A program made the translations under genes and the position numbers. A stretch of 45,834 bases of DNA, from positions 1 to 45,834 of IMG/VR virus record IMGVR_UViG_3300045988_134072. One strand, given 5' to 3'. Under the pieces are notes generated by a model. The model had not been told where the DNA came from. It made no database searches and saw only the letters and a list, made by a program, of their open reading frames with translations. This DNA comes from a virus. Position 1 is the stretch's first letter. Every line of letters starts with the position of its first letter. This document shows positions 1-45,834 of the stretch, one piece after another.

Positions 1-24
1 CAGAACTAAGATCAATACCAATTA
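1..24. repeat. 24-bp direct terminal repeat, left copy (identical to 45811..45834)
   Basis: cagaactaagatcaataccaatta is read at both window ends. Sequence alone cannot separate a physical terminal redundancy from a circular-assembly overlap. Confidence 0.9.
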
Positions 25-55
25 CGCCTTAAGACTTAAAGCAACGACAGAACTA
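18..55. repeat. 38-bp repeat copy identical to 45781..45818
   Basis: ccaattacgccttaagacttaaagcaacgacagaacta occurs at both places. It is part of a 47-bp-period repeat once the ends are joined. Confidence 0.9.
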
Positions 56-101
56 TAAGATAGAAACCATGATCTATAAGATAGAAACCATGATCTATAA
101 G
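53..101. repeat. 21-bp tandem repeat, about 2.3 copies (ctataagatagaaaccatgat)
   Basis: Perfect copies at 53-73 and 74-94, partial copy at 95-101. Confidence 0.9.
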
Positions 102-509
102 CCATAAGTCGTGAACTAGAGAACTTGAGATAGAGAGCTTTAAACATTAGGTTAAGACTTAAGATATATATTTATATATATACTTGCCCCCCTACCCCCC
201 AAGGGCTTTTACCCTCTCACTATATAGTCTCGTTCCGGCACCCCGCTCACTGTTCACTTTTTTCAATAATGAGATGCATGTCACGCGCAGGCAGTCATGG
301 CATCACGTCCAAAACCGCAGAAACAAGCCAATCGCCCTAAATCGCCTTCCCTGAGGCTGGAGGCATGGGCTGCGACCGGGGTTGCGAGCCTGGGGAGGGG
401 CATGTTAGCATGGGCCGTCAAGCGGTGTGCGGCGTGGTGAATTGGTTGACATGGAAAGCTTGTGACCCGTCGCGGATATTTTTTGCTATGACCGTGTGGT
501 ATTCAGGCG

Positions 510-642
510 CAATTCTTTGGGGGTCATAGCCCCCTATTTAATTGCGCGGTAGAATTGATGTGAGTGCACTCGGATAATTGCGCGTGTGGTTATTTTCTCG
601 CATTTTGGGACAATTCTTTGTTGCTATTGACAACGATTCTTT
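510..642. repeat. short dispersed direct repeats
   Basis: caattcttt at 510 and 611, with variant cgattcttt at about 633. aattgcgcg at 540 and 576. The region has no credible ORF. Confidence 0.6.
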
Positions 643-653
643 AATGCTTTATC

Positions 654-674
654 GCGCGCGATGCGCGCGCTTTT
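654..674 (+). terminator. GC hairpin followed by TTTT (intrinsic-terminator-like)
   Basis: gcgcgcg-atg-cgcgcgc (7-bp stem) then tttt at 671-674. No upstream gene was identified. Confidence 0.3.
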
Positions 675-722
675 AGCGTCGCCGTCTCTCGGCTAATCGT
701 CGCTGCGCTAGCGTCGCCTAGT

Positions 723-774
723 GGGATGGGTGTAGGTGAGGGTGTGGGTAGGGCGCTAGGGACGTGTGTAGGGG
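723..774 (+). other. cluster of seven G3-G4 runs (G-quadruplex-capable)
   Basis: GGG at 723, 728, 740, 746, 751 and 759, and GGGG at 771, separated by short loops. Confidence 0.5.
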
Positions 775-823
775 TGCGCCTGGGGCGTTTTGACAGGTGT
801 GTGTACGCGTGTTATTTGCGGCG

Positions 824-853
824 TTCGTTTGCGAGCTTGCGCGCGTATATAAT
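824..853 (+). promoter_or_regulatory. candidate sigma70-type promoter (TTCGTT-N18-TATAAT)
   Basis: Perfect TATAAT at 848-853 with a weak -35. It points toward the + strand gene arm. A second weaker candidate is TTGACA at 790-795 with TATTTG at 813-818. Confidence 0.3.
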
Positions 854-1266
854 CCGCTTATCGCTGCGGTTTTCGGGGTGGTCGGCGTTGGCGCGTGGGT
901 GGTTGCGTCTTGGAATGTGGTTACTGTACATCTCAGTATGTGGTTGCGTTTGGGTGTCGGGCTTGCATTGGGTAGGCGTCGGGTCTAGACTGATGTCATC
1001 GCCCCTGAGGGAGCGTCCGAGAGACCGGTTGGGTCTCGGAGGCGTTTGCCTGGGTGTGCGCGGGATGTTTGCCCCCTGTGGGGTTTGTGAATTAAATCGT
1101 GGTTGATTTATTGCCTCTTTGGCGCGCGCTTTGCCTAGCGCGGTCACTCAGCTGCTTCAAGTCGCGGCCCTGCGTAGGGCAGGGCGGCGCGCGGCTCACA
1201 CCGTCGCTAGGGCTGGCCTTGAGTTCCCGGCTGGCTTAATCGGGGGCGCGCGTCGTTATTGGACTA

Positions 1267-1341
1267 GGGCGGCTTTGGTGAGCTCCGCGGGCCTCGTTAG
1301 CAGCGGGGGCGCGGGGGCAGGTTCAATCCCTGTACCGCCTA
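1267..1341 (+). ncRNA. tRNA-like element TLE1 (75 nt, near tRNA-sized, degenerate)
   Basis: Acceptor gggcggc/accgcct (6 of 7 pairs). T arm gcagg-ttcaatc-cctgt. Anticodon-position hairpin cctcg-ttagcag-cgggg. No convincing D stem. Followed by hairpin 1375-1393. Confidence 0.5.
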
Positions 1342-1419
1342 CGGGCGCGCCTAATGGTGGGCGGCGCTAACTACGGTCCCCACGGTGGGGGCCTATCTGG
1401 AAATGTGAGAGGTAAGATC

Positions 1420-1746
1420 ATGGCTATTTCTGAGATGATTCGGGGCCTTATGGACTTCGATGTGGAGCCTGGATTTAGCGTCGGTGCGAGGCTTTGCGTC
1501 GTGCTCGATTCGTCGGGTACTGGGTACCTGCTTATCCGTGAGGATAGGACGATTGTGCTCGAATGGGGCGCGGGCGGGGGCATGGTTGGCGTGACCGTGT
1601 CCGATCTGTCGCCGTCTGAAAAGCGCGCAGTTACGCGCGTGGTTCGGGCGATTCGCCCGACGTTTACGCCCGACTGGGGGGTGTGGGAGGGCATGCGTCG
1701 CCGGGTGTCTGGCTATCGCACGATGCTTGCCATGCGTCCCCTGTGA
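1420..1746 (+). CDS. hypothetical protein (cassette gene 1)
   Basis: ATG 1420 follows the conserved leader gaaatgtgagagg, in frame with ORF 1354..1746. No recognisable domain. Confidence 0.6.
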   Translation: MAISEMIRGLMDFDVEPGFSVGARLCVVLDSSGTGYLLIREDRTIVLEWGAGGGMVGVTVSDLSPSEKRAVTRVVRAIRPTFTPDWGVWEGMRRRVSGYRTMLAMRPL

Positions 1747-1773
1747 GGCTTGGGGGCTGATTAGTCCCTGGTT

Positions 1774-1823
1774 TCCCGGCCCTAGTGGTGGGTGTGAGCT
1801 GGGTTCGATTCCCAGGTCGGGAG
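1774..1823 (+). ncRNA. tRNA-like top-half element TLE2 (50 nt, no anticodon arm)
   Basis: Acceptor tcccggc/gtcggga, linker cctagtggtgggtgtgag, T arm ctggg-ttcgatt-cccag, then g c. Hairpin 1826-1844 follows. Confidence 0.7.
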
Positions 1824-1871
1824 CTGACAACCATGGTGGTTGTCTCTTGAAAGAGAGTGAGAGGTTTAACC

Positions 1872-2393
1872 ATGACTTTGGTATGGCATCCCGAGGATTG
1901 GCATCCGGCATTGCAGTGTGCTTGCCAGGCGGTTCGCTGGTCGCTACAGGTGGGCATTTCGTTCCCTGAGATTGTGGACTGGTTCTACTCGGATGGGACG
2001 TTCCCGTGTTCGGATGACTGGGATGAGTGCGTGTTGCGTGCGCGTTGGGAGACGCACACGTGGCGCGACGTTTTCCAGATGTGGGATGAGTGCGGACGTC
2101 CCGAGTACGATCCGAGCTGTTGGGGCTGGGATGAGTGTGATCCTGAGTCCCGGCGCGATGCGCAGGGTAACGCGCGACTCGATGCGGTGGGGGAAATGGT
2201 GTATGACCGCTTCCCCGAGGCTCTGGAATGGGCGGCGCGTGAGCTGGGCTGGGAGATGCGCTGGGGGACTGATTTCCCTGATGGCGTGTTCCCGGCGGGC
2301 GCGATTGCCCTTGATGAGGGTGGTTTGGAAGCGGCGGCGGGGGATGAATGGATTGTGGTTCTGGTTCCCCCGGCTGCGGTTGTGGCAGCTTAG
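1872..2393 (+). CDS. hypothetical Trp/Asp/Glu/Cys-rich protein with three WDEC motifs
   Basis: ATG 1872 is 7 nt after gagagg. DDWDECV, MWDECG and GWDECD are present in the translation. Confidence 0.6.
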   Translation: MTLVWHPEDWHPALQCACQAVRWSLQVGISFPEIVDWFYSDGTFPCSDDWDECVLRARWETHTWRDVFQMWDECGRPEYDPSCWGWDECDPESRRDAQGNARLDAVGEMVYDRFPEALEWAARELGWEMRWGTDFPDGVFPAGAIALDEGGLEAAAGDEWIVVLVPPAAVVAA

Positions 2394-2405
2394 GCTGCTT
2401 GGTTT

Positions 2406-2456
2406 TCGCGGGCTTAGTGGTGAGTGTAGAGCCGGGTTCGATTCCCGGCCCGCGAG
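2406..2456 (+). ncRNA. tRNA-like top-half element TLE3 (51 nt)
   Basis: Acceptor tcgcggg/cccgcga, linker cttagtggtgagtgtagag, T arm ccggg-ttcgatt-cccgg, then g c. Hairpin 2462-2478 follows. Confidence 0.7.
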
Positions 2457-2518
2457 CGGGGGCGCGCGTGGCGTGCGCGTGTCCTATCACAGAGCAATTG
2501 AGAATTGAGGACAAGACG

Positions 2519-2851
2519 ATGGGTTTCATGGCTGAGGTCACGGGCGATGCGTTCGATGCGATGGTGGATGCGTGGGGCGACGTGGATTCGTTCACGCGTG
2601 CGGAGCTTGGCGGCGCGCCCGAATGGGCTGAATATGTCGATGATAGTGGAGAGCTTTTCAATCAGGGTGAGCTTGAATATGCTTTCGAGAACGATTTGAA
2701 CGAGTGCTACGACACGGTTTCCGTGTGTGGGTATGAGTTTGACGCGGGGCGCGCGCTGAGAGAGCTTGACCCTATCGCGTTCCGCTGCGACTTCAATGAC
2801 TGGATTGACGGGCGCATTAGCGACGGCGAACTGCGCCGTATTGAGGACTGA
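2519..2851 (+). CDS. hypothetical protein, GAPxWA family member 1 of 4
   Basis: ELGGAPEWAEYVDDSGELF near the middle and SDGELRRIED at the C-terminus, shared with 3443, 5102 and 5563. Confidence 0.7.
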   Translation: MGFMAEVTGDAFDAMVDAWGDVDSFTRAELGGAPEWAEYVDDSGELFNQGELEYAFENDLNECYDTVSVCGYEFDAGRALRELDPIAFRCDFNDWIDGRISDGELRRIED

Positions 2852-2862
2852 CATGGTTCTCG

Positions 2863-2923
2863 CCCTTGGCAAGTCGGTTGCGCCCCCGTGTGGGGGTCCT
2901 GGGTTCGATTCCTGGGCTTGGGG
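2863..2923 (+). ncRNA. tRNA-like element TLE4 (61 nt, weakened variant)
   Basis: T arm ctggg-ttcgatt-cctgg (two wobble pairs). Outer stem cccttggc/gcttgggg with one U-U mismatch. Internal hairpin ccccc-gtgt-ggggg. Hairpin 2926-2946 follows. Confidence 0.4.
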
Positions 2924-2977
2924 CTGGGCTACCAAGGCGGTGGCCCTACTTGGAATTGTGAGAAAGAGGTTTCTGTC

Positions 2978-3331
2978 ATGACTGTTCTGCATGATATTGA
3001 TTCGGCGGCGTACGCTGTTCGGCACGGGTTCGCGGGTGACATTATCCCGGTCGCAATCAACTTCAACGTTGTTCGTATCCCGCGCCCCGAGGGTGGCGAC
3101 GAATACCGCGTCTATTCGTATCGGACGCTGGTTGCGATTGTGACGCGGGCGGTGGGCACTATTGGCGTGCGTGTTGACATGTGTGCCGACGCGCTGAATC
3201 ACTCGGTTACAACTTCCCGGCATGTGTCGCGTTTCCTGAGTGGCGTGGCGGATGGGCGCGTGGATTGGGACCGGCTTAAGGCGCTGTGTGCGTCGGCTGT
3301 TGGTTCTACGGTCGTTGTTCCCACGGTTTAA
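2978..3331 (+). CDS. hypothetical protein
   Basis: ATG 2978 follows the leader ggaattgtgagaaagagg. Contains YSYRTLVA and NHSVTTSRHV motifs. Function not recognised. Confidence 0.65.
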   Translation: MTVLHDIDSAAYAVRHGFAGDIIPVAINFNVVRIPRPEGGDEYRVYSYRTLVAIVTRAVGTIGVRVDMCADALNHSVTTSRHVSRFLSGVADGRVDWDRLKALCASAVGSTVVVPTV

Positions 3332-3339
3332 CGCGGGTT

Positions 3340-3389
3340 TCCCTAGCCTGTTGGTAGGTGCAATGCAGGTTCGACCCCTGCCTAGGGAG
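3340..3389 (+). ncRNA. tRNA-like top-half element TLE5 (50 nt)
   Basis: Acceptor tccctag/ctaggga (perfect), linker cctgttggtaggtgcaat, T arm gcagg-ttcgacc-cctgc, then g c. Hairpin 3393-3411 follows. Confidence 0.7.
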
Positions 3390-3442
3390 CTGGGCAACCA
3401 TGGTGGTTGCCTATTCTGAGAATGTGAGACGAGGTTTTTACG

Positions 3443-3799
3443 ATGGCGATTCGAATCATGCTCCCTAGCGACGGATATTCGCCCGCGTGGGAGTGGATGA
3501 ATGCGTGGCAGCATGACGCTTTGCGAGAATGGTGGGGCAATAGCTCTCGCCTGGTTCGCGAGAGTGTGGGCGCGCCCGCGTGGGCTGAATACGTGGATAG
3601 GGACGGCGCGGCTTGGTCCCGTGAGGGGCTGCTAACGCGGCTGGTCTTTGATGCTATCGATACGTTTGGCGAGGCGCATGTTGATGCGACGATTAAGGAA
3701 CTCGGCAATGATGGCATGATTGAAATGCTTGACGGGTGGCTTGAGGCCCGCGTGTTCGCGGGTGAGCTGGTTCGCCTCGTTAGCGAGAGTGAGGCGTGA
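3443..3799 (+). CDS. hypothetical protein, GAPxWA family member 2 of 4
   Basis: VGAPAWAEYVDRDGAAW and C-terminal FAGELVRLVSE. Confidence 0.7.
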   Translation: MAIRIMLPSDGYSPAWEWMNAWQHDALREWWGNSSRLVRESVGAPAWAEYVDRDGAAWSREGLLTRLVFDAIDTFGEAHVDATIKELGNDGMIEMLDGWLEARVFAGELVRLVSESEA

Positions 3800-3800
3800 G

Positions 3801-4130
3801 ATGAATCGGGATGAGCTGAAAGCCCTGGTTGAGCGGGCGCGTGAGGATGCGGACTTCCCCGGCTACTTCCTGTACTGCCAGGTGGGCATTAGCGGCGTGC
3901 GTTCGTCGTTTGGGTGGGTTGATTCTGACGGGTTCCTGCGCACGCGCGCTGACTTGGCGGATGAGTGTGAGGCTGAGTTGGATTACTTGTGCGCGGCGGC
4001 GGGCGGTAGTGGCTTGCTGGGGGATGATATGCGTTTGTTTAATCCCGCTGGGTTCGATGAGTGCGTGACTACGTATATTGAACACTTGGTTGCGCAGGGC
4101 GTGCTGATTCCCTTGTATTACGCGGACTAG
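3801..4130 (+). CDS. hypothetical protein
   Basis: ATG 3801 lies one nt after the TGA of the previous gene. It is the only early cassette gene without its own tRNA-like leader. Confidence 0.6.
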   Translation: MNRDELKALVERAREDADFPGYFLYCQVGISGVRSSFGWVDSDGFLRTRADLADECEAELDYLCAAAGGSGLLGDDMRLFNPAGFDECVTTYIEHLVAQGVLIPLYYAD

Positions 4131-4182
4131 CGGGGGGTGGATACTTGGTATTCTGGTTGCGTGACGTGTGACACGCAGGTTA

Positions 4183-4232
4183 TCGCGGGCTTAATGGTGA
4201 GTGCAAGGCTGGTTCGATTCCAGTCCCGCGAG
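4183..4232 (+). ncRNA. tRNA-like top-half element TLE6 (50 nt)
   Basis: Acceptor tcgcggg/cccgcga, linker cttaatggtgagtgcaag, T arm gctgg-ttcgatt-ccagt, then g c. Hairpin 4242-4258 follows. Confidence 0.7.
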
Positions 4233-4290
4233 CGACGGGCAGGTGCCACGGTGGCATCGCCTCGGATACATGGAATAGGAGACAGAGGAA

Positions 4291-4968
4291 ATGAGCGGTG
4301 ACAAGACAATTCGCGTGACGGGCCAGGCCGGGCTGGATGAGGCGCTGGCTAACCCCCCGTCTGATGATGTGGTGATCGTGATCGACTCGCACCCCGGCGA
4401 TTTCATCCCGAACTACGTTTTCGTGATGGATTCGCGCGGGCATGCGGTTGAAGCGTGTGGTGAGTCGCGTGTGGTTGTGTCGGGCCACGCACAGTTGACG
4501 GCGCGGGGGCATAGCATGGTTGAAGCGCAGGATGACGCGGTTGTGCGCGCGACGGACTTCGCGCAGGTTAACTGGCGTGACAGTTCTAGCGGCACGTGCG
4601 GGTACTATGCGCGCGGCCAGGCATGGGACACGGCTAAGGTGGAAACGCGCGCACTGTGTCCGCTGTTCGCGTTCGACAATGCCGAGGTGACGGCGCGCAG
4701 CGCTTCCCGCGTGGTGGCACAGGGCAACGCGTCCGTGTACGCCTACAATCAGGCGGTTGTCGAAATGAGCGGCGACGTTGACGTGACGGCCTACGATCAA
4801 TCGGTTGTCTACTGTGAGGGCGGCGAGGTGTACGCCCGTTGTTGTGCGACAGTGTACGTGATGGGAGACGCGGACAGGCCGAGCGTTGAGGGCGTGCCAA
4901 CCGTGGTTGTGCATGACCTTGCGGGTGACACGCCCGTGACGGGTGGGCCGGTTGTTCTCACCGCGTGA
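4291..4968 (+). CDS. hypothetical protein with periodic V-x-A/beta-strand repeats (beta-helix-like)
   Basis: Recurring segments of about 18-20 aa such as GESRVVVSGHAQLTARGHSMVEAQDDAVVRA and ASRVVAQGNASVYAYNQAVVEMSGDVDVTAYDQSVVY. Confidence 0.65.
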   Translation: MSGDKTIRVTGQAGLDEALANPPSDDVVIVIDSHPGDFIPNYVFVMDSRGHAVEACGESRVVVSGHAQLTARGHSMVEAQDDAVVRATDFAQVNWRDSSSGTCGYYARGQAWDTAKVETRALCPLFAFDNAEVTARSASRVVAQGNASVYAYNQAVVEMSGDVDVTAYDQSVVYCEGGEVYARCCATVYVMGDADRPSVEGVPTVVVHDLAGDTPVTGGPVVLTA

Positions 4969-4988
4969 CAGGGGTGTTGGCCCTTGGT

Positions 4989-5039
4989 TCCCAGGCTTAG
5001 GGGTGAGTGTTTAGGCGGGTTCGATTCCCGCCCTGGGAG
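4989..5039 (+). ncRNA. tRNA-like top-half element TLE7 (51 nt)
   Basis: Acceptor tcccagg/cctggga, linker cttaggggtgagtgtttag, T arm gcggg-ttcgatt-cccgc, then g c. Only small hairpins follow. Confidence 0.7.
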
Positions 5040-5101
5040 CGGGTTCGCGCCCAACAGGGCTGCGGACTGCATTGAAAGCCGAGTGTGAAGGTGGTGACCC
5101 C

Positions 5102-5443
5102 GTGAGGGATATCAGCAAGTGTAAGACGATGGCGGCGGGCGAGTACATGACGCCCAAGCAGGCGTATGACCTCAAAGTGACGTGGGGTGAGGCCGAGTAC
5201 GTGCTGCGTGACGCGATGAACGCGCCCGACTGGGCGCACTTCATTGACTATGAAGGTACCGCGTATTCGGTTGAGTACCTGGCGGAGGAATGGATACAAA
5301 GTGGTGCGGTAGAAGGCGAGCGAGAGCTTATGATCATGCTCTCCCCGGAGCTGACGTCCCAAATCATCTTCAAGTCCATCAGGGAGCTCGTTAAGGCGGG
5401 CGAGCTGTGCGCGATCGTGGACTCACCCGACGATTGGAAGTAA
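5102..5443 (+). CDS. hypothetical protein, GAPxWA family member 3 of 4
   Basis: NAPDWAHFIDYEGTAY and C-terminal KAGELCAIVDS. The start is uncertain: GTG 5102 after gaaggtgg, with alternatives TTG 5072 and ATG 5129. Confidence 0.6.
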   Translation: MRDISKCKTMAAGEYMTPKQAYDLKVTWGEAEYVLRDAMNAPDWAHFIDYEGTAYSVEYLAEEWIQSGAVEGERELMIMLSPELTSQIIFKSIRELVKAGELCAIVDSPDDWK

Positions 5444-5457
5444 CCCCAAGGGGGGTT

Positions 5458-5510
5458 TCCCTGGCGCTCGATGGGTGAGCGTCGTGCCGGTTCGAGTCCG
5501 GGCCAGGGGG
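5458..5510 (+). ncRNA. tRNA-like element TLE8 (53 nt, retains D-arm-like hairpin)
   Basis: Acceptor tccctgg/ccagggg. D-like hairpin cgctc-gatgggt-gagcg. T arm gccgg-ttcgagt-ccggg (4 bp plus one mismatch), then g c. Hairpin 5516-5536 follows. Confidence 0.65.
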
Positions 5511-5562
5511 CGATAGACAAACCACCCTGGTTTGTCTTGACATGAAACGAGAGTGATGCAAA

Positions 5563-5928
5563 ATGAATACTTTCCCCCTGTCAACCGTCAAATCCGGCTC
5601 CCAGGTCAAGGAAGATGCGCTCCCCGAAATGGTGGGCCTGTGGGATGGGCGCACGCAGTTCACGCGCAAAGAGCTGGGAGGCGCGCCCGACTGGGCGCGA
5701 TGGGTTAACCGTGACGGATACCTGTTCGACATGACTGACGTATTCGACGCGTTCAACGAAATGCTCGACTCAACACGCCCGCCCATCCAGATTGTGGGGG
5801 TGCAAATCTCCCCCCACATGGCGCTTTGGGCGCAGCCCAGCGACTACAAGCACAAGTGTTGGTGCTGGCTGGGCGACCTGATTGCTGCAGGCGAACTACG
5901 AGAGGTGGTTGACGATGCTCGCGCATGA
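5563..5928 (+). CDS. hypothetical protein, GAPxWA family member 4 of 4
   Basis: ELGGAPDWARWVNRDGYLF and C-terminal AAGELREVVDD. Confidence 0.7.
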   Translation: MNTFPLSTVKSGSQVKEDALPEMVGLWDGRTQFTRKELGGAPDWARWVNRDGYLFDMTDVFDAFNEMLDSTRPPIQIVGVQISPHMALWAQPSDYKHKCWCWLGDLIAAGELREVVDDARA

Positions 5929-6148
5929 CAGCTGGGTTCCCCCGGCCCCTTACCAGCCGTGCATCCCCCTGCGGGACGGCGTGTGGGCCGACGCCGGGGA
6001 CTGGATGACCGGCCCCGACGCAGACACGCACGGACGATGGACGCGCCTTGAGGGCGTGCCAGTGACGCGTGAGGGCTTCAAGACAGCCGCCCGCCGCGTC
6101 CTGGCGTTGGCGGTGTGCGACGGTGGCCTGTGGGGCCTCGCCGCGTGA
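5915..6148 (+). CDS. hypothetical protein
   Basis: ATG 5915 follows gaggtgg and overlaps the end of the previous gene. In frame with ORF 5882..6148. Confidence 0.5.
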   Translation: MLAHDSWVPPAPYQPCIPLRDGVWADAGDWMTGPDADTHGRWTRLEGVPVTREGFKTAARRVLALAVCDGGLWGLAA

Positions 6149-6171
6149 CCAAGACAAACGGAAGGAATGCG

Positions 6172-6519
6172 ATGGCAAAACTGGACGGCGGCACTGAACA
6201 CATCACAGCGTTGCGTGACTTTTGCGAGTTTCTTTGGGGACTATCAGATACGATTCAAGCCCGCGCAGAAATCGTGGGCTTGAGTGGATTCCCCGAGGCG
6301 TGCAAGGGCTTAGGCGATTCGCCCGACGCTGACCGCGCTTGCGAGGCGTACGGCGACCTGCAAATTGCGCTGACAGACTGCGCTCTCATGGTGGATGTCC
6401 TGACCGACCATCTTGAGCTGGTGAATGACCCTGTTGTGCGTGACTGGCAGGGGCGGCGGGACATGCTGAGCACAGAATTGCCTACGTCGCGTGACATGTG
6501 GCAGAACGATCAACAGTAA
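6172..6519 (+). CDS. hypothetical protein, GDSP pair member 1
   Basis: ATG 6172 follows ggaagg. Its KGLGDSPDADRA motif is shared with the next gene. Confidence 0.6.
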   Translation: MAKLDGGTEHITALRDFCEFLWGLSDTIQARAEIVGLSGFPEACKGLGDSPDADRACEAYGDLQIALTDCALMVDVLTDHLELVNDPVVRDWQGRRDMLSTELPTSRDMWQNDQQ

Positions 6520-6535
6520 AACTTGGAAGGCAATC

Positions 6536-6808
6536 ATGATGGAAAGCAGCAACCCCAACAAGGCGTGGATGTTGGCCGCGAAATGGGCAGCCCTCGCCGG
6601 GGAGGTTGATTACATGCGAGAACGGCTCGACCTCAATCTGCTCATGGCAGGCGTACGTCACAGGCATGACGTGCCGGGCGACAAGCTGGGAGATTCCCCC
6701 GAGGCGAGCATGGTTCGCGCGCATGCGCGCGCTGCCCTCGGAGCGCTGGAACACCTGTCCGACTCGCTCAAAACCGTGGCAATCAAGCTCGACGCGCAAG
6801 CGAGCTAA
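6536..6808 (+). CDS. hypothetical protein, GDSP pair member 2
   Basis: ATG 6536 follows ggaagg. Carries a DKLGDSPEASMVRAHA motif. Confidence 0.6.
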   Translation: MMESSNPNKAWMLAAKWAALAGEVDYMRERLDLNLLMAGVRHRHDVPGDKLGDSPEASMVRAHARAALGALEHLSDSLKTVAIKLDAQAS

Positions 6809-6841
6809 CAAGCAAGAATAACTGGAAGGCAGTGTGAACTA

Positions 6842-7345
6842 ATGGTCTGGTATGACGAAAGCGACGTTGCGGCGGTAGCCGTGCGCGTCATGGAGGACTG
6901 GGAACAGTACTACAACAACATGCTCAGCAGCGCGGCTAAGGTTGCGGGGTGGAGCGTCGTCTATGATGCCCCCACTAAGCATCACAGGTGGCACGCAATG
7001 CGCCTGGTCCGCACACAAGGCGACGAACTGCAGAGTACGTGGTGCGTGGGCGAGTACGTGCTGCTGCATGCTGATAAGCCCCTGGCCCTCGCCCGCGAAA
7101 TGCGAGTGTCGGGCAAGTGGGAGCTTGCGCGTGAGTGGCCCGTGCCTGTGGGGACGCGGCTGGGGGCGCTCATGTGGCTGAACCGGCGCGACCCTGCGAC
7201 GTCGCACGAATTGCCCGACATGACGCGCCCCAACTGGCGTGCTCACCTGTGCGGCACTCCTGGCGGCGACTGGGGGCTGACGCTCGATATTCTCTGGCAA
7301 AACAGGGCGTGCGCGCCAGAGTTCGCACTGACGCCCGCTGCCTGA
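6842..7345 (+). CDS. hypothetical protein
   Basis: ATG 6842 follows ggaagg. 167 aa with no recognisable domain. Confidence 0.6.
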   Translation: MVWYDESDVAAVAVRVMEDWEQYYNNMLSSAAKVAGWSVVYDAPTKHHRWHAMRLVRTQGDELQSTWCVGEYVLLHADKPLALAREMRVSGKWELAREWPVPVGTRLGALMWLNRRDPATSHELPDMTRPNWRAHLCGTPGGDWGLTLDILWQNRACAPEFALTPAA

Positions 7346-42379: not shown

Positions 42380-44104
42380 CTAGAACCGGAAGAACGACCC
42401 CCCGGCCTTCGCAACCGGCCTCGACGCCATCTCCGTCTGATAGTCCCTATAAGCCCCAAACGCGAGCATTGCCGCCGCGTACATGTCGATCTTCTTTTTC
42501 GATTCACGACCGGCCTTCATAAACGACACGCCATACGGCGTATCCTTACGCAACACATTCAACACATGACGACGGAACGACGCCGCCAACTCGCGCGAAC
42601 CACCATGCGACACCTTACCGTCAAGAATCGCCGCCATAAACGCCTCATGCAAGTTCACCGTCCGCTTACGAGAACCACGCATATCCCACGCAATCGGACC
42701 CCGGTCCGACGCGCGAGCCACAAGCCGCTCACCATAATCCAGCGTCCACTCATGAATGTACGACTCCCACAACGCAACGTCCGCATAGAACCCAACGACG
42801 TCGTAATCACGGAAGCAACGGTGGACCATCGAGTCCACGCGTTCACGGTCAACCTCCCAGTCGCCCGCAAGGTCCAGAGGCTTCTCATCCAACAACAGGG
42901 GAACCATCAAACCATCCGACACGCGAATAGCCACCAGCGCCGTAGAGTCATCAGACTTACCGCCGTCGAACCCGAGCACGATCCTGTCACCCGGCTCCAA
43001 CGTCGCCTTACGCTCAATACGCTTCCACTCAGCCGACGAGAACAAATTACCCTCAGGCTGCCACACCTGATTCAAGTACATGCGACGCGACTCCGACGTC
43101 GGACGCGACGGATTCAACACCGACCGCCACGCCTCATCAGCATCACACCACACCGAATCCCCACGCACAGCGTTATACAAAACCTTGAACACGCGCTCAT
43201 CCAACGGCGTATCATCCGGGGCCTCCAACGAGTCATAGAAAACATCGTTATCCGTCGTCAGCCCCTCCAACGTCCTCATGTACGCCTCGCGGTCATTCTC
43301 AGCAACACTACCCTCGCCAGGCTTGTAGGCGTTAGTGATAGCGAGGTAACGGGCCTTCATCTTCGTCGTATTGCCCTCAACCGTATTCTTCAACTGCTGC
43401 CCATTATTCTGAGGCAACCAGTGTTGCGTCTCGTTTAGCAGTGCAAAAGTACAACGGTTGCCCTCCGTCGAACGGAACGATGACGTCTTAACCTCAATAC
43501 GCGCCGTGTTGTTACAACCACGCACAATCTGCAAACGCACATCCACGCCATACTTCGCACGCAACCGGTCACCAACAAGCACATGGAACATATCGAACGT
43601 ATTGCTCGTTTGCTCCTGCTTCAACGCGAAAATCTGCACCAACGCCTGCGGACACCTACGCCCAACAGGCTCACCATCCGAACCCCAACCAGCAAACCTC
43701 GACGGACCAAACGCCTCCACCAAACACAGAACAGCAAGCAACGGGTCCTTACCCCAACCCTTAATCCGCTGCAAAACACCACGACGTCGGTAAATGAACT
43801 TACCCTCATCATCAACCGCATACCACCACAACACGATACGCAACTGCTCAAGCGTAAACTCAAAAACATCCTGGTCCGCGCCCAACGGCTCCAAGTAATC
43901 CGAACACCACCGGGCAATCTCCCAACCCAACGTATGCTCAGGCAACACAAACCGGCCATCCTCGCCACGCTCCCACGTCGGCCCATAATGCACCGGCGCG
44001 AAACGCTCAAGAATCTCCGCGTCAGACAAACCATCATAGGGACCCGCAGGGGGTGTCCCAGCCTTATCAACATCGACCAAAACCAGGACACCCCCCAACC
44101 CCAT
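42380..44104 (-). CDS. terL: terminase large subunit
   Basis: 575 aa from ATG 44104. The ORF-track N-terminal extension to 44509 runs through a tRNA gene and was trimmed. Confidence 0.9.
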   Translation of the reverse strand: MGLGGVLVLVDVDKAGTPPAGPYDGLSDAEILERFAPVHYGPTWERGEDGRFVLPEHTLGWEIARWCSDYLEPLGADQDVFEFTLEQLRIVLWWYAVDDEGKFIYRRRGVLQRIKGWGKDPLLAVLCLVEAFGPSRFAGWGSDGEPVGRRCPQALVQIFALKQEQTSNTFDMFHVLVGDRLRAKYGVDVRLQIVRGCNNTARIEVKTSSFRSTEGNRCTFALLNETQHWLPQNNGQQLKNTVEGNTTKMKARYLAITNAYKPGEGSVAENDREAYMRTLEGLTTDNDVFYDSLEAPDDTPLDERVFKVLYNAVRGDSVWCDADEAWRSVLNPSRPTSESRRMYLNQVWQPEGNLFSSAEWKRIERKATLEPGDRIVLGFDGGKSDDSTALVAIRVSDGLMVPLLLDEKPLDLAGDWEVDRERVDSMVHRCFRDYDVVGFYADVALWESYIHEWTLDYGERLVARASDRGPIAWDMRGSRKRTVNLHEAFMAAILDGKVSHGGSRELAASFRRHVLNVLRKDTPYGVSFMKAGRESKKKIDMYAAAMLAFGAYRDYQTEMASRPVAKAGGSFFRF

Positions 44105-44114
44105 CAACACACAG

Positions 44115-44200
44115 TACCCGTGGCGGGACTCGAACCCGCACGCCCCCCTGGGGCGCCACATTTTGAGTGTGGTGTGTCTACCTAATTCCACCACACGGGC
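44115..44200 (-). tRNA. tRNA-Leu(CAA), class II, no encoded CCA
   Basis: Hand fold: acceptor gcccgtg/cacgggt (G1-U72), 3-bp D stem with a GG loop, anticodon arm ccaca-cuCAAaa-tgtgg (anticodon at 44163-44165), long variable arm cgcccc/ggggcg, T arm gcggg-ttcgagt-cccgc. Confidence 0.85.
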
Positions 44201-44488
44201 CAAAGATGAACCCCCCAGCGCAAACCGCCAGGGGGGTGGCCGCGAGGCGAACCCCGCTACCACTACCAAGAAAATGCCCCCGCCGTATAGCCGTCGTGCT
44301 CGCGCGCCACGCCGCGACCCAAGGCCGCGACTCGCCGTTTCAGCGTACGGGGGCCACCAAAATCCCAACCAACCCCACACAGGGGCGGAAAGGAACAAAG
44401 AATCTCCAACCCACTCCACGCAAACGCGCGGGCGGGTTGAAAACAGCCCCGCCACCCCACACGAGGCAACGAGGGAATACCAGAACTC

Positions 44489-44525
44489 CGGCCCGAACCC
44501 ACACCCCATTGTGTAGGCCGGGCCG
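44489..44525 (-). other. long imperfect hairpin downstream of the redoxin gene
   Basis: About 15 bp of pairing on the - strand (cggcccggcctacac...gtgtgggttcgggccg). No clear U-run follows. Confidence 0.3.
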
Positions 44526-45780: not shown

Positions 45781-45834
45781 CCAATTACGCCTTAAGACTT
45801 AAAGCAACGACAGAACTAAGATCAATACCAATTA
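45781..45834. repeat. right-end repeat block (45781..45818 = 18..55; 45811..45834 = 1..24)
   Basis: Joining the ends and collapsing the 24-bp overlap gives about 1.8 tandem copies of the 47-bp unit ccaattacgccttaagacttaaagcaacgacagaactaagatcaata. Confidence 0.85.

Follow-up and report, generated by a model that had tools for sequence, protein, structure and literature searches.

Repeated tRNA-like elements alternate with small early genes in an uncultured phage genome and may mark sites of transcript processing

What are the repeated elements that separate the small genes in the early region of an uncultured phage, and what could they do there? The question is raised by IMG/VR record IMGVR_UViG_3300045988_134072, of which positions 1 to 45,834, the whole stretch analysed here, are called the window. 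Eight plus-strand elements, each resembling a part of a transfer RNA (tRNA), lie between positions 1267 and 5510 and are referred to as tRNA-like elements TLE1 to TLE8. Our analysis indicates that they represent a selected RNA fold. As to their role, we give somewhat better than even chances to the reading, drawn from the sequence, that they are cis-acting tRNA mimics, at which tRNA-maturation enzymes of the host would cut a polycistronic early transcript into single-cassette messenger RNAs (mRNAs).

Eight elements of three structural classes

The elements were noticed in a first-pass annotation of the window; all eight were confirmed at the places given there, and the acceptor- and T-stem sequences were quoted correctly. 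They are listed below with their scores against R1, a covariance model that we built from the six short copies (nt, nucleotides; bp, base pairs).

TLE1, 1267..1341, plus strand: precedes the first gene; 6-bp acceptor (G1-U72), no D stem (UUUGGUGAG), long central arm; T arm GCAGG/UUCAAUC/CCUGU, A73, and C74 at 1342; T-loop motif, R1 18.1 bits
TLE2, 1774..1823, plus strand: acceptor UCCCGGC/GUCGGGA; D-like hairpin CCUA-GUGG-UGGG; T arm; G73; no anticodon arm; R1 71.9 bits, covariation
TLE3, 2406..2456, plus strand: acceptor UCGCGGG/CCCGCGA; no anticodon arm; R1 75.8 bits
TLE4, 2863..2923, plus strand: mini-cloverleaf with D-like arm, 6-bp central arm with GUGU loop, and T arm; R1 only 14.5 bits
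TLE5, 3340..3389, plus strand: acceptor UCCCUAG/CUAGGGA; T loop UUCGACC; no anticodon arm; R1 67.6 bits
TLE6, 4183..4232, plus strand: acceptor UCGCGGG/CCCGCGA; no anticodon arm; R1 74.4 bits
TLE7, 4989..5039, plus strand: acceptor UCCCAGG/CCUGGGA; no anticodon arm; R1 74.8 bits
TLE8, 5458..5510, plus strand: D-like 5-bp stem with 7-nt loop (CGCUC-GAUGGGU-GAGCG); T loop UUCGAGU; no anticodon arm; R1 54.9 bits

Three structural classes can be distinguished: a form of 45–58 nt without anticodon arm, which is the majority, the TLE4 type and the TLE1 type. Six of the eight elements (50–53 nt) had been described as lacking the anticodon arm, and the alignment of these six agrees. However, the 18–21 nt linker that had been drawn behind their acceptor strand is not unstructured; it holds a 4-bp D-like hairpin with an NNGG loop, which abuts the acceptor and is followed by a linker of 6–7 nt and the T stem. 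The D-like hairpin covaries as well (UA/CG, UG/UA and AU/GU). One correction concerns TLE8, in which pair 1-72 is U-G and the first T-stem pair is G-G.

The TLE1 type always stands first in its array. RNAalifold over 10 TLE1 orthologues gave 28 pairs, 7 of them compensatory; the apex of the central arm is invariant and permits a loop of 7 nt, UUAGCAG. The TLE4 type, with its central 6-bp arm and a loop of 4–6 nt, is conserved in eight relatives; the acceptor of TLE4 in the window contains two U-U mismatches that are not present in the relatives.

Covariation of the fold in a family of related copies

The motif GGTTCRANYCC occurs nine times in the window, once in each of the eight elements and once in a tRNA-Leu(CAA) gene, against a chance expectation of 0.35; none of 100 shuffled sequences reached nine. 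The structure tested consisted of a 7-bp acceptor, a 4-bp hairpin, a linker of 6–7 nt and a 5-bp T arm. With the six short copies aligned by MAFFT, pairing on this structure reaches 96.9% of the stem cells, and 8 of the 16 pairs change on both sides, whereas pairing is 29–59% in controls with a slid 3′ partner.

As the first-pass annotation had recommended, a covariance-model search was carried out; R1 found at least about 250 more copies on roughly 80 uncultured phage contigs. Arrays of three to eight copies are present in related viral contigs (IMG/VR pattern scan, then R1), the metagenome scan taking in at least 120 loci, where R1 added at least 194 further copies. Pairing is 96.7% among 51 distinct sequences and 97.6% among 100 distinct metagenome copies, with 12 and 13 of the 16 pairs being compensatory, respectively; both alignments were fitted to R1 and are biased towards the model, but the MAFFT alignment and the slid controls (30–56% pairing in the two larger sets) agree with them. 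The covariation score is 0.57–0.61, compared to 0.19 for shuffles.

Conservation is very uneven along the fold. Among the 100 copies, the acceptor and the T stem are paired in 99% and 98%, respectively; U54, U55, C56, R57 and A58 of the T loop and the G53-C61 pair are 100% conserved, the GG of the D-like loop 97–99%, and C74 99%. In the acceptor, U1-A72 (91%), C2-G71 (97%) and C4-G69 (99%) are conserved, whereas pairs 3, 5, 6 and 7 vary freely, pair 3-70 being CG or GC in nearly all copies. G-U or U-G was found in 114 stem cells and A-C or C-A in 11; therefore, it is the sense strand that folds, and this asymmetry rules out double-stranded DNA palindromes bound by protein. Decayed tRNA pseudogenes are ruled out by the compensatory evolution over at least about 250 copies. 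The proposal that the elements are a selected sense-strand fold, which mimics the acceptor, T-arm and elbow half of a tRNA, is thus borne out by the covariation, the invariant T loop and G53-C61 pair, and the G-U excess.

Smaller versions of 45–51 nt were observed in other metagenomic phage contigs (L112 4562-4606 and 5307-5354, L156, L016 4718-4765 and L097 1303-1353; L numbers denote loci compared here), with the same order of hairpin, ribosome-binding site and start described below. This suggests that the family is broader than R1 can detect.

Comparison with canonical tRNAs

It had been predicted that tRNA finders would not call the elements, and ARAGORN and Rfam are indeed silent on all eight. 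In the window ARAGORN reports the tRNA-Leu only, and no transfer-messenger RNA (tmRNA); Rfam likewise reports the tRNA-Leu only, at gathering thresholds, and none of the eight elements even with E<=10 over positions 1000-7000. At either setting no tRNA, tmRNA, Y RNA, ribozyme (hammerhead, twister, pistol, hepatitis delta virus-like and others) or other Rfam family explains the elements.

Measured against the canonical tRNA (RF00005), the elements possess the 7-bp acceptor, the 5-bp T stem, the UUCRANY loop and G53-C61. A 5-bp anticodon stem with a 7-nt loop is not found; the loop of TLE4 is 4 nt in size. From the D arm (U8, A14, G18-G19, A21 and the 2-nt linker 8-9), the GG alone is retained (97–99%), and the linker is missing.

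TLE1 orthologues are called 'tRNA-Ala(AGC)' by ARAGORN in several relatives, including L004, L045 and L036; in these three, on which Rfam was run, the tRNA model scored below threshold, and it misses both TLE1- and TLE4-type orthologues. An AGC anticodon, with A34, is not known to be natural in bacteria. TLE1 was rejected as a genuine tRNA-Ala for that anticodon, the lack of G3-U70 and of a D stem, and the sub-threshold Rfam score.

Although the elements are no tRNAs, they resemble real phage tRNA genes, which mostly lack an encoded CCA and end in N73-C74-nonC as the elements do; examples are the tRNA-Leu of the window and tRNA-Gln, tRNA-Pro and tRNA-Leu(AAG) in L154. R1 matches just one co-resident tRNA, the tRNA-Gln(UUG) of L154 and L206, with 34.3 bits. 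This tRNA reads UCCCAGA...UCUGGGA-G-C and has the leader GGGUUUA, its acceptor and leader being as in the elements. Because of the shared acceptor, leader and CCA-less trailer, and of the exclusive match by R1, the elements look like a tRNA-Gln-type gene from which the anticodon arm has been removed and the flanks kept.

In the relatives of about 50% guanine-plus-cytosine (GC) content, real tRNA clusters lie on the strand of the late genes, at L154 449-1075(-) (Leu-AAG, Gln-UUG, Pro-UGG and Leu-CAA) and L206 2458-2920(-) (Gln-UUG, Pro-UGG and Leu-CAA). The tRNA-Leu(CAA) of the window is genuine and located at 44114-44200(-); it has no encoded CCA (..CACGGGU-A-C-ug). Its position is directly upstream of the large-terminase open reading frame (ORF) at 42380-44509 or within a 5′ extension of that frame, a site that is kept in relatives L058, L125, L036 and L207.

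One element per gap, flanked by two hairpins

The elements had been said to punctuate an operon, and the relatives agree. In 152 of 157 distinct modules a same-strand ORF ends 5–53 nt upstream of the element (median 14), and in 146 of the 157 a start with a ribosome-binding site follows downstream (median 50 nt). With independent gene calls, seven elements of L207 lie 8–43 nt past called stops. In the window the elements start 9–53 nt past the preceding stop, as first given; their ends are 49–90 nt from the next start rather than 53–79 nt, the starts of g2 and g8 being ambiguous (genes are numbered from g1 on and listed below). Each gap holds a single element, and the abutting or overlapping pairs g5/g6 and g9/g10 have none between them. 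R1, run with filters off, found no element outside the early cassette region in the 45.8 kb.

Alignment of 60 copies with their flanks revealed a constant order: stop codon, hairpin, (U)GGUU(A/U), element, R73-C74-K, hairpin of 8–12 bp, ribosome-binding site and start. The ribosome-binding site is purine-rich, often AUGUGAGA...GAGG. The downstream hairpin begins 2–4 nt past the discriminator in most of the 60 modules, with a mean folding energy of -14.6 kcal/mol compared to -8.4 kcal/mol for shuffles, and is 25–35 nt away from the start codon. The upstream hairpin is common but weaker (-9.8 versus -6.9 kcal/mol for shuffles). Helices within the module are 8–12 bp at their longest. The module is found in phage lineages of about 60% and about 50% GC, and the forms of 45–48 nt keep the same grammar.

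The hairpins in the window, all on the plus strand, were located by folding unless stated otherwise:

1344-1368 and 1375-1393: two hairpins after TLE1, then GGAAAUGUGAGAGG and the start of g1 (folds, read from sequence)
1752..1769: module 2, upstream hairpin, then GGUU
1826..1844: module 2, downstream 8-bp hairpin GACAACCA-UGG-UGGUUGUC, which begins 2 nt past C74
2384..2399: module 3, upstream hairpin, overlapping the stop codon, then UGGUUU (folds, terminator scan)
2459..2485: module 3, downstream 11-bp hairpin
2843..2861: module 4, upstream hairpin, overlapping the end of g3
2926..2946: module 4, downstream hairpin GGGCUACC-AAGGC-GGUGGCCC
3320..3337: module 5, upstream hairpin, weak, then GGGUU
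3391..3413: module 5, downstream 10-bp hairpin with apex CCAUGGUGG
4155..4180: module 6, upstream hairpin, then AGGUUA
4236..4264: module 6, downstream hairpin
4969..4986: module 7, upstream hairpin, then GGU
5042..5068: module 7, downstream hairpin
5442..5457: module 8, upstream hairpin CCCCAAGGGG
5515..5537: module 8, downstream 10-bp hairpin

Many of the downstream hairpins share the apex CCA-N-GG-Y-GG (for example ACCAUGGUGGU), including those at 1826-1844, 3391-3413 and 2926-2946 of the window and many in the relatives; it is present in the 50% GC lineage too. In downstream hairpins with the CCANGGYGG apex, 125 of 130 stem cells are paired, with three to six pair types per position. The apex AUGGUG resembles the loop of the D-like hairpin (A-AUGG-UGAG) and the 3′ part of the Shine-Dalgarno sequence.

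A promoter and terminator scan gave nothing above shuffles (one promoter-like match found, 2.7 expected); the scan was simple and does not cover actinobacterial promoters. The sole sigma-70-like match in positions 1-7000, at 5537-5564(+) (TTGACA, 16 nt, CAAAAT), overlaps the downstream hairpin of TLE8 and ends at the start of g9. It is probably due to chance, because fewer matches were found than in shuffles.

Cassette exchange at the elements

Comparison with 18 related loci by blastn gave 144 similarity breakpoints. Of these, 117 fall in element cores or module flanks, which occupy 32% of the region, and 13 inside ORFs, which occupy 66%; the counts are to be read with some caution, since the contigs are inter-related, blastn alignments tend to end at conserved islands and repeats can give rise to assembly chimeras. 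Genes g1 and g4 are not shared, g6 is variable, and some relatives carry an extra 'gene X' between two elements. Judged from the breakpoints and the variable cassettes, the repeats are therefore joints of a mosaic cassette array.

One element, at L125 6528-6580, is chimeric: its 5′ acceptor strand UCCCUGA and its 3′ strand CCCGCGA come from differing element types and do not pair. Together with an upstream hairpin, it is miscalled tRNA-Gly(CCC) by ARAGORN. Real recombination and an error of assembly could each have produced it.

A proposed model of transcript processing

The elements keep what tRNA enzymes would read: the acceptor (7 bp) and the T arm (5 bp) in one stack, the T loop, and the D-like GG for the elbow. 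It is by the acceptor/T stack and the elbow that RNase P, RNase Z and the CCA-adding enzyme identify their substrates, and CCA-less precursors use RNase Z (PMC4810234). We propose these enzymes because the features they recognise are the most conserved parts of the elements. RNase P would cut 5′ of U1, leaving the upstream mRNA with its own hairpin and GGUUA at the end, shielded from 3′ exonucleases. The 3′ pathway for CCA-less tRNAs, RNase Z or an equivalent, would cut after R73. The downstream mRNA would then begin 1–3 nt before its 8–12 bp hairpin, shielded from the 5′-end-dependent RNases E and J, with ribosome-binding site and start codon about 25–35 nt beyond the protective hairpin. A minihelix of about 51 nt would be freed as by-product. 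Being repeated, the modules would double as homology joints, through which cassettes are gained, lost and swapped among related phages. Pfam and PHROGs searches of 40 ORFs identified no phage-encoded RNase P, RNase Z, CCA-adding enzyme, ligase or Ro60; for lack of such an enzyme among these ORFs, processing would fall to the host.

There are precedents for the individual steps. For a tRNA-like module of Mycobacterium smegmatis, whose acceptor comprises 7 bp, cutting by RNase P has been shown in vitro, and cleavage together with CCA tailing in vivo (PMC4201824); other known targets of RNase P are mRNAs of operons and two phage RNAs, C4 and M3 (PMC11143913). The processing hypothesis is strengthened, as far as sequence features can do so, by the flanking covarying hairpins, the tRNA-like trailer, the single element per gap and the absence of elements between coupled genes. 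It is the strict one-to-one alternation with genes, together with the two flanking hairpins, that leads us to favour a cis-acting role. The overall interpretation in the first-pass annotation is therefore supported in part: the fold and the punctuation hold, and the processing is what we infer from them.

Several points weigh against processing in cis. Every enzymatic step is a deduction of ours. Folding energies of single sequences are only weakly better than those of shuffles (z -0.15 to -2.1), and the minimum free energy fold misses the T arm in TLE2, TLE5 and TLE8; for this reason the case for the structure rests on covariation and not on thermodynamics. As the D-like hairpin abuts the acceptor and the 8-9 linker is missing, a true L-shaped elbow is only presumed. 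The downstream hairpin, 1–3 nt past C74, and the conserved C74 itself might hinder RNase Z. The conservation of U1-A72, C2-G71 and C4-G69 is more than nucleases that read shape should need, and hints at another partner or at concerted evolution. TLE4 persists in the window despite its damaged acceptor, and weak promoters of actinobacterial type may exist between the cassettes. Moreover, the cassette breakpoints at elements are equally expected from a role at the DNA level. The first-pass annotation had held that gene content varying exactly at element borders would argue for DNA recombination sites; gene content does vary there, which in part bears this out, but a DNA-only role does not explain the T-loop invariance or the wobble asymmetry. 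We read recombination at the elements, which in part counts against the processing model, as an added consequence or second role and not as its replacement.

Alternative explanations

Because the acceptor identity is near-invariant, the idea of a trans-acting decoy stays alive. The excised minihelix, eight per transcript, tRNA-Gln-like and perhaps CCA-tailed, would titrate a factor of the host that recognises acceptor ends or elbows of tRNAs, for instance an abortive-infection toxin directed at tRNAs, or the GatCAB/ND-GluRS machinery, which recognises U1-A72; mRNA cutting would be secondary. The far higher conservation of pairs 1-72, 2-71 and 4-69 and of R73 and C74 than of the other stem pairs fits this idea, as do the match of R1 to tRNA-Gln(UUG) alone among co-resident real tRNAs, the presumably high dose and early expression; GatCAB is among the elbow-reading enzymes (PMC4810234), and both tRNA-targeting defences and phage tRNA countermeasures are known. 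We nevertheless consider it unlikely. Unlike tRNA arrays, the elements are never in tandem, and neither the strict 1:1 relation to ORFs nor the surrounding grammar is needed for a pure small-RNA gene; lacking the anticodon arm, they could not be charged by synthetases that read the anticodon, nor serve as substrate for anticodon nucleases. The conservation may also reflect common descent from one tRNA gene with gene conversion among the repeats, and no candidate target was identified. Acting in cis, and a little less probable than the decoy, is a 5′ cap for the untranslated region of each mRNA: RNase P alone would cut, and the tRNA-like fold would stay on the downstream message with a base-paired 5′-monophosphate, where it and the next hairpin would stabilise the message or aid ribosome loading. 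The constant distance to the start codon is in line with this, and the conserved C74 with a hairpin within 1–3 nt may disfavour the 3′ cut. However, a second hairpin right after the element would be redundant, and real phage tRNAs share the C74 trailer yet must be 3′-processed.

That the repeats are chiefly DNA-level homology or recombinase sites, integron-like, with the RNA fold incidental, is what the breakpoint distribution, the cassettes g1, g4, g6 and 'gene X' present or absent exactly between elements, and the non-matching acceptor halves of the L125 element would lead one to expect; the plus strand of the elements may also fold as single-stranded DNA. We regard it as improbable, since invariant T-loop bases and a GG loop form an RNA tertiary motif that homology does not need, and the G-U over A-C excess marks a strand-specific fold. 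Recombination driven by homology predicts the reverse of stems that vary yet stay paired, the sole recombinase found among the ORFs scanned is an ordinary phage integrase (PF00589), and the clustering of breakpoints at conserved islands is partly a by-product of blastn, with assembler chimeras possible at repeats. Very improbable, in our judgement, are separate transcription units, in which the upstream hairpin and U-rich stretch would be a terminator, each cassette would have a promoter, and the elements would be small RNA genes or decaying tRNA pseudogenes. The hairpin followed by UGGUUU does resemble a weak terminator, two having been picked up by the scan, and actinobacterial promoters are hard to recognise; but the 25–35 nt from hairpin to start are too short for a promoter plus leader, promoter-like matches are fewer than in shuffles, and pseudogenes would not hold 97% pairing by compensatory change over so many copies.

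Processing, exchange and decoy could also be combined in an 'RNA-punctuated cassette array', with a processed, hairpin-capped mRNA for each accessory gene, joints between the cassettes, and excised tRNA-Gln-like top halves as effectors that soak up a host factor reading the tRNA acceptor (a tRNA-directed defence toxin or GatCAB). This is speculative and on the whole doubtful, although less so than any of the four alternatives above.

Comparison with known systems

Mitochondrial tRNA punctuation and the t-elements of plant mitochondria are like the present elements in that tRNA or tRNA-like folds separate or adjoin the coding regions of a polycistronic RNA. In these systems excision by RNase P and RNase Z sets the mRNA ends, and the t-elements are non-decoding mimics of the acceptor and T arm. 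They differ in being organellar, in that the animal units are mostly working tRNAs, and in having neither a fixed pair of protective hairpins nor a cassette array; moreover, cleavage has been shown for them, while the phage elements are known here from sequence. By the same logic, synthetic polycistronic tRNA-guide RNA arrays release many units from one transcript. At the 3′ ends of MALAT1 (mascRNA) and MEN-beta, the tRNA mimic has the sole function of bringing in RNase P and RNase Z, which form the end (PMC4810234). These latter examples are eukaryotic or man-made and use full cloverleaves, whereas the phage elements are natural and have a minimised fold.

In the early polycistronic transcript of phage T7, structured intergenic signals are cut by a host enzyme, and the resulting mRNAs are stable and end in hairpins. 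That enzyme, RNase III, recognises long hairpins of double-stranded RNA; the stems of the present elements are 4–12 bp in length and part of a tRNA mimic, and hairpins of about 20 bp or more, as RNase III of the T7 type requires, are not found in the modules. RNase P is known to act on tRNA- or acceptor-like folds in transcripts other than those of tRNA genes, among them polycistronic mRNAs and RNAs of phages (PMC11143913). Its substrates of this kind, the his and other operon mRNAs, the C4 antisense RNA of P1 and P7, the M3 RNA of phi80, pre-tmRNA and pre-4.5S RNA, are one-off, idiosyncratic sites that lack a canonical T loop and elbow, and none forms a repeated family with dozens to hundreds of copies separating every gene from the next.

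YrlA, a bacterial Y RNA that also occurs in phages, shows the same mimicry of acceptor, T arm and D arm, and its M. smegmatis version is cut by RNase P and CCA-tailed (PMC4201824). It is, however, a stand-alone RNA beside Ro60 (rsr) with a Ro-binding stem (GNCGAAN0-1G), and the elements lie inside mRNA; rsr/Ro60 was not found among the ORFs scanned with Pfam and PHROGs, and no Y RNA was matched in Rfam. The tRNA-like domain of tmRNA is comparable in its acceptor, T arm, reduced D region and missing anticodon arm; it differs in the G3-U70 alanine identity, the pseudoknots, the tag frame and the single gene, the elements having C3-G70 or G3-C70. The attC sites of integrons are alike in being structured repeats after each small promoter-less cassette, with structure more conserved than sequence and with content that varies at the repeats. 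They work as folded single-strand DNA with R and L boxes and IntI, whereas the elements carry invariant tRNA T-loop and elbow bases; among the ORFs scanned, an IntI-type integrase was not identified, only the generic PF00589 integrase.

In the full-text collection searched, whose coverage of subscription journals is thin, neither tRNA-like punctuation of a phage operon nor this RNA family was found described. What is known is tRNA mimicry that recruits RNase P and RNase Z; what appears to be new is its probable use between the genes of a phage operon.

Genome setting and the punctuated genes

The window looks like the complete genome, about 45.8 kb, of an uncultured temperate phage of siphovirus type with an actinobacterial host. 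Its end and start are contiguous in relatives, and homologous proteins are found on contigs of 45–46 kb. Small and large terminase, portal, capsid, tape measure, endolysin and replication genes (exonuclease, DnaB-like helicase and primase) are on the minus strand, and the integrase, of ordinary phage type and matching PF00589, is on the plus strand. The portal is about 41% identical to those of Streptomyces phages. For the element region there was no DNA match, near or distant, in the GenBank phage collection, and on this ground we count no cultured relative. A 21.8-kb contig binned as 'uncultured Actinomyces sp. MGYG-HGUT-01273' is the sole bacterial-genome record with an element array; as it is a single binned record, the assignment of Actinomyces as host is tentative.

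Non-coding DNA of about 1.3 kb (45785-45834 plus 1-1266) separates the divergent late and early arms, with AT-rich direct repeats of 21 nt at 50-105, and may hold cos, an origin or operators. About 170 nt before TLE1 are 84% conserved across relatives and include a covarying hairpin at about 1165-1188; a convincing promoter was not found in these 170 nt.

The punctuated genes, all on the plus strand, are as follows:

g1, 1420..1746: 108 aa (amino acids); cassette absent from most relatives, without blastn similarity over 1426-1750; no Pfam or PHROG match
g2, 1872..2393: 173 aa
g3, 2519..2851: 110 aa; paralogous with g5, g8 and g9
g4, 2978..3331: 117 aa; no DNA similarity in 18 of the 18 relatives compared
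g5, 3443-3799, and g6, 3801-4130: abutting (UGAgAUG); g6 absent from several relatives
g7, 4291..4968: 225 aa; phrog_15773 (unknown function)
g8, 5129..5443: 104 aa; start uncertain, alternative GTG at 5102
g9, 5563..5928: 121 aa; last gene preceded by an element, the genes beyond overlapping or abutting and element-free

The g2 protein is rich in Trp, Asp, Glu and Cys and has repeated WDEC-like motifs (DWDEC, WDECG and WDECD), without a family match. In tblastn, g7 matched only hypothetical proteins of Mycobacterium phages, which are weak homologues. Genes g3, g5, g8 and g9 encode small acidic paralogues with the shared motif ELGGAPxWAxYVD. Homologues of the g3 family were found only in metagenomic phage contigs, and no PDB sequence matched. 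For the confident AlphaFold model of this family (pLDDT 92), Foldseek gave no match to a PDB fold (best E 3.2), and the modelled protein is possibly a new fold; it gave no help in explaining the elements.

In the cultured actinomycete Catelliglobosispora koreensis DSM 44566, three tRNA-like copies of 65–68 nt lie on three scaffolds (L066 1844-1908, L068 5400-5464 and L084 7270-7337) and read UCCCGCA...GGGUUCGAAUCCCUGUGCGGGA-G-C-G. ARAGORN does not call them; each has a hairpin on either side, followed by conserved downstream sequence. They may belong to a related type of element whose context differs and is perhaps mobile.

Implications

Being absent from Rfam and invisible to tRNA finders, elements of this kind are overlooked or miscalled as odd tRNAs in phage annotation. 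If they are cut as proposed, this would be, to our knowledge, the first natural tRNA-style punctuation of the operon of a bacterial virus; so far the strategy is familiar to us from organelles, from a small number of long non-coding RNAs of eukaryotes and from synthetic tRNA-guide arrays. The elements, at about 51 nt with a 4-bp D-like hairpin, would then be a minimal natural substrate of bacterial RNase P and RNase Z, and the module of 3′ hairpin, tRNA mimic, 5′ hairpin and ribosome-binding site would offer an insulator for actinobacterial synthetic biology. The tRNA-Gln-like identity of the minihelix is a testable lead to RNA decoys in the conflict between phage and host. Should the 'RNA-punctuated cassette array' prove true, it would be a phage counterpart of the integron built on tRNA mimicry. 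For the phage itself, processing at the elements would explain how a fast-changing set of small early genes is expressed individually.

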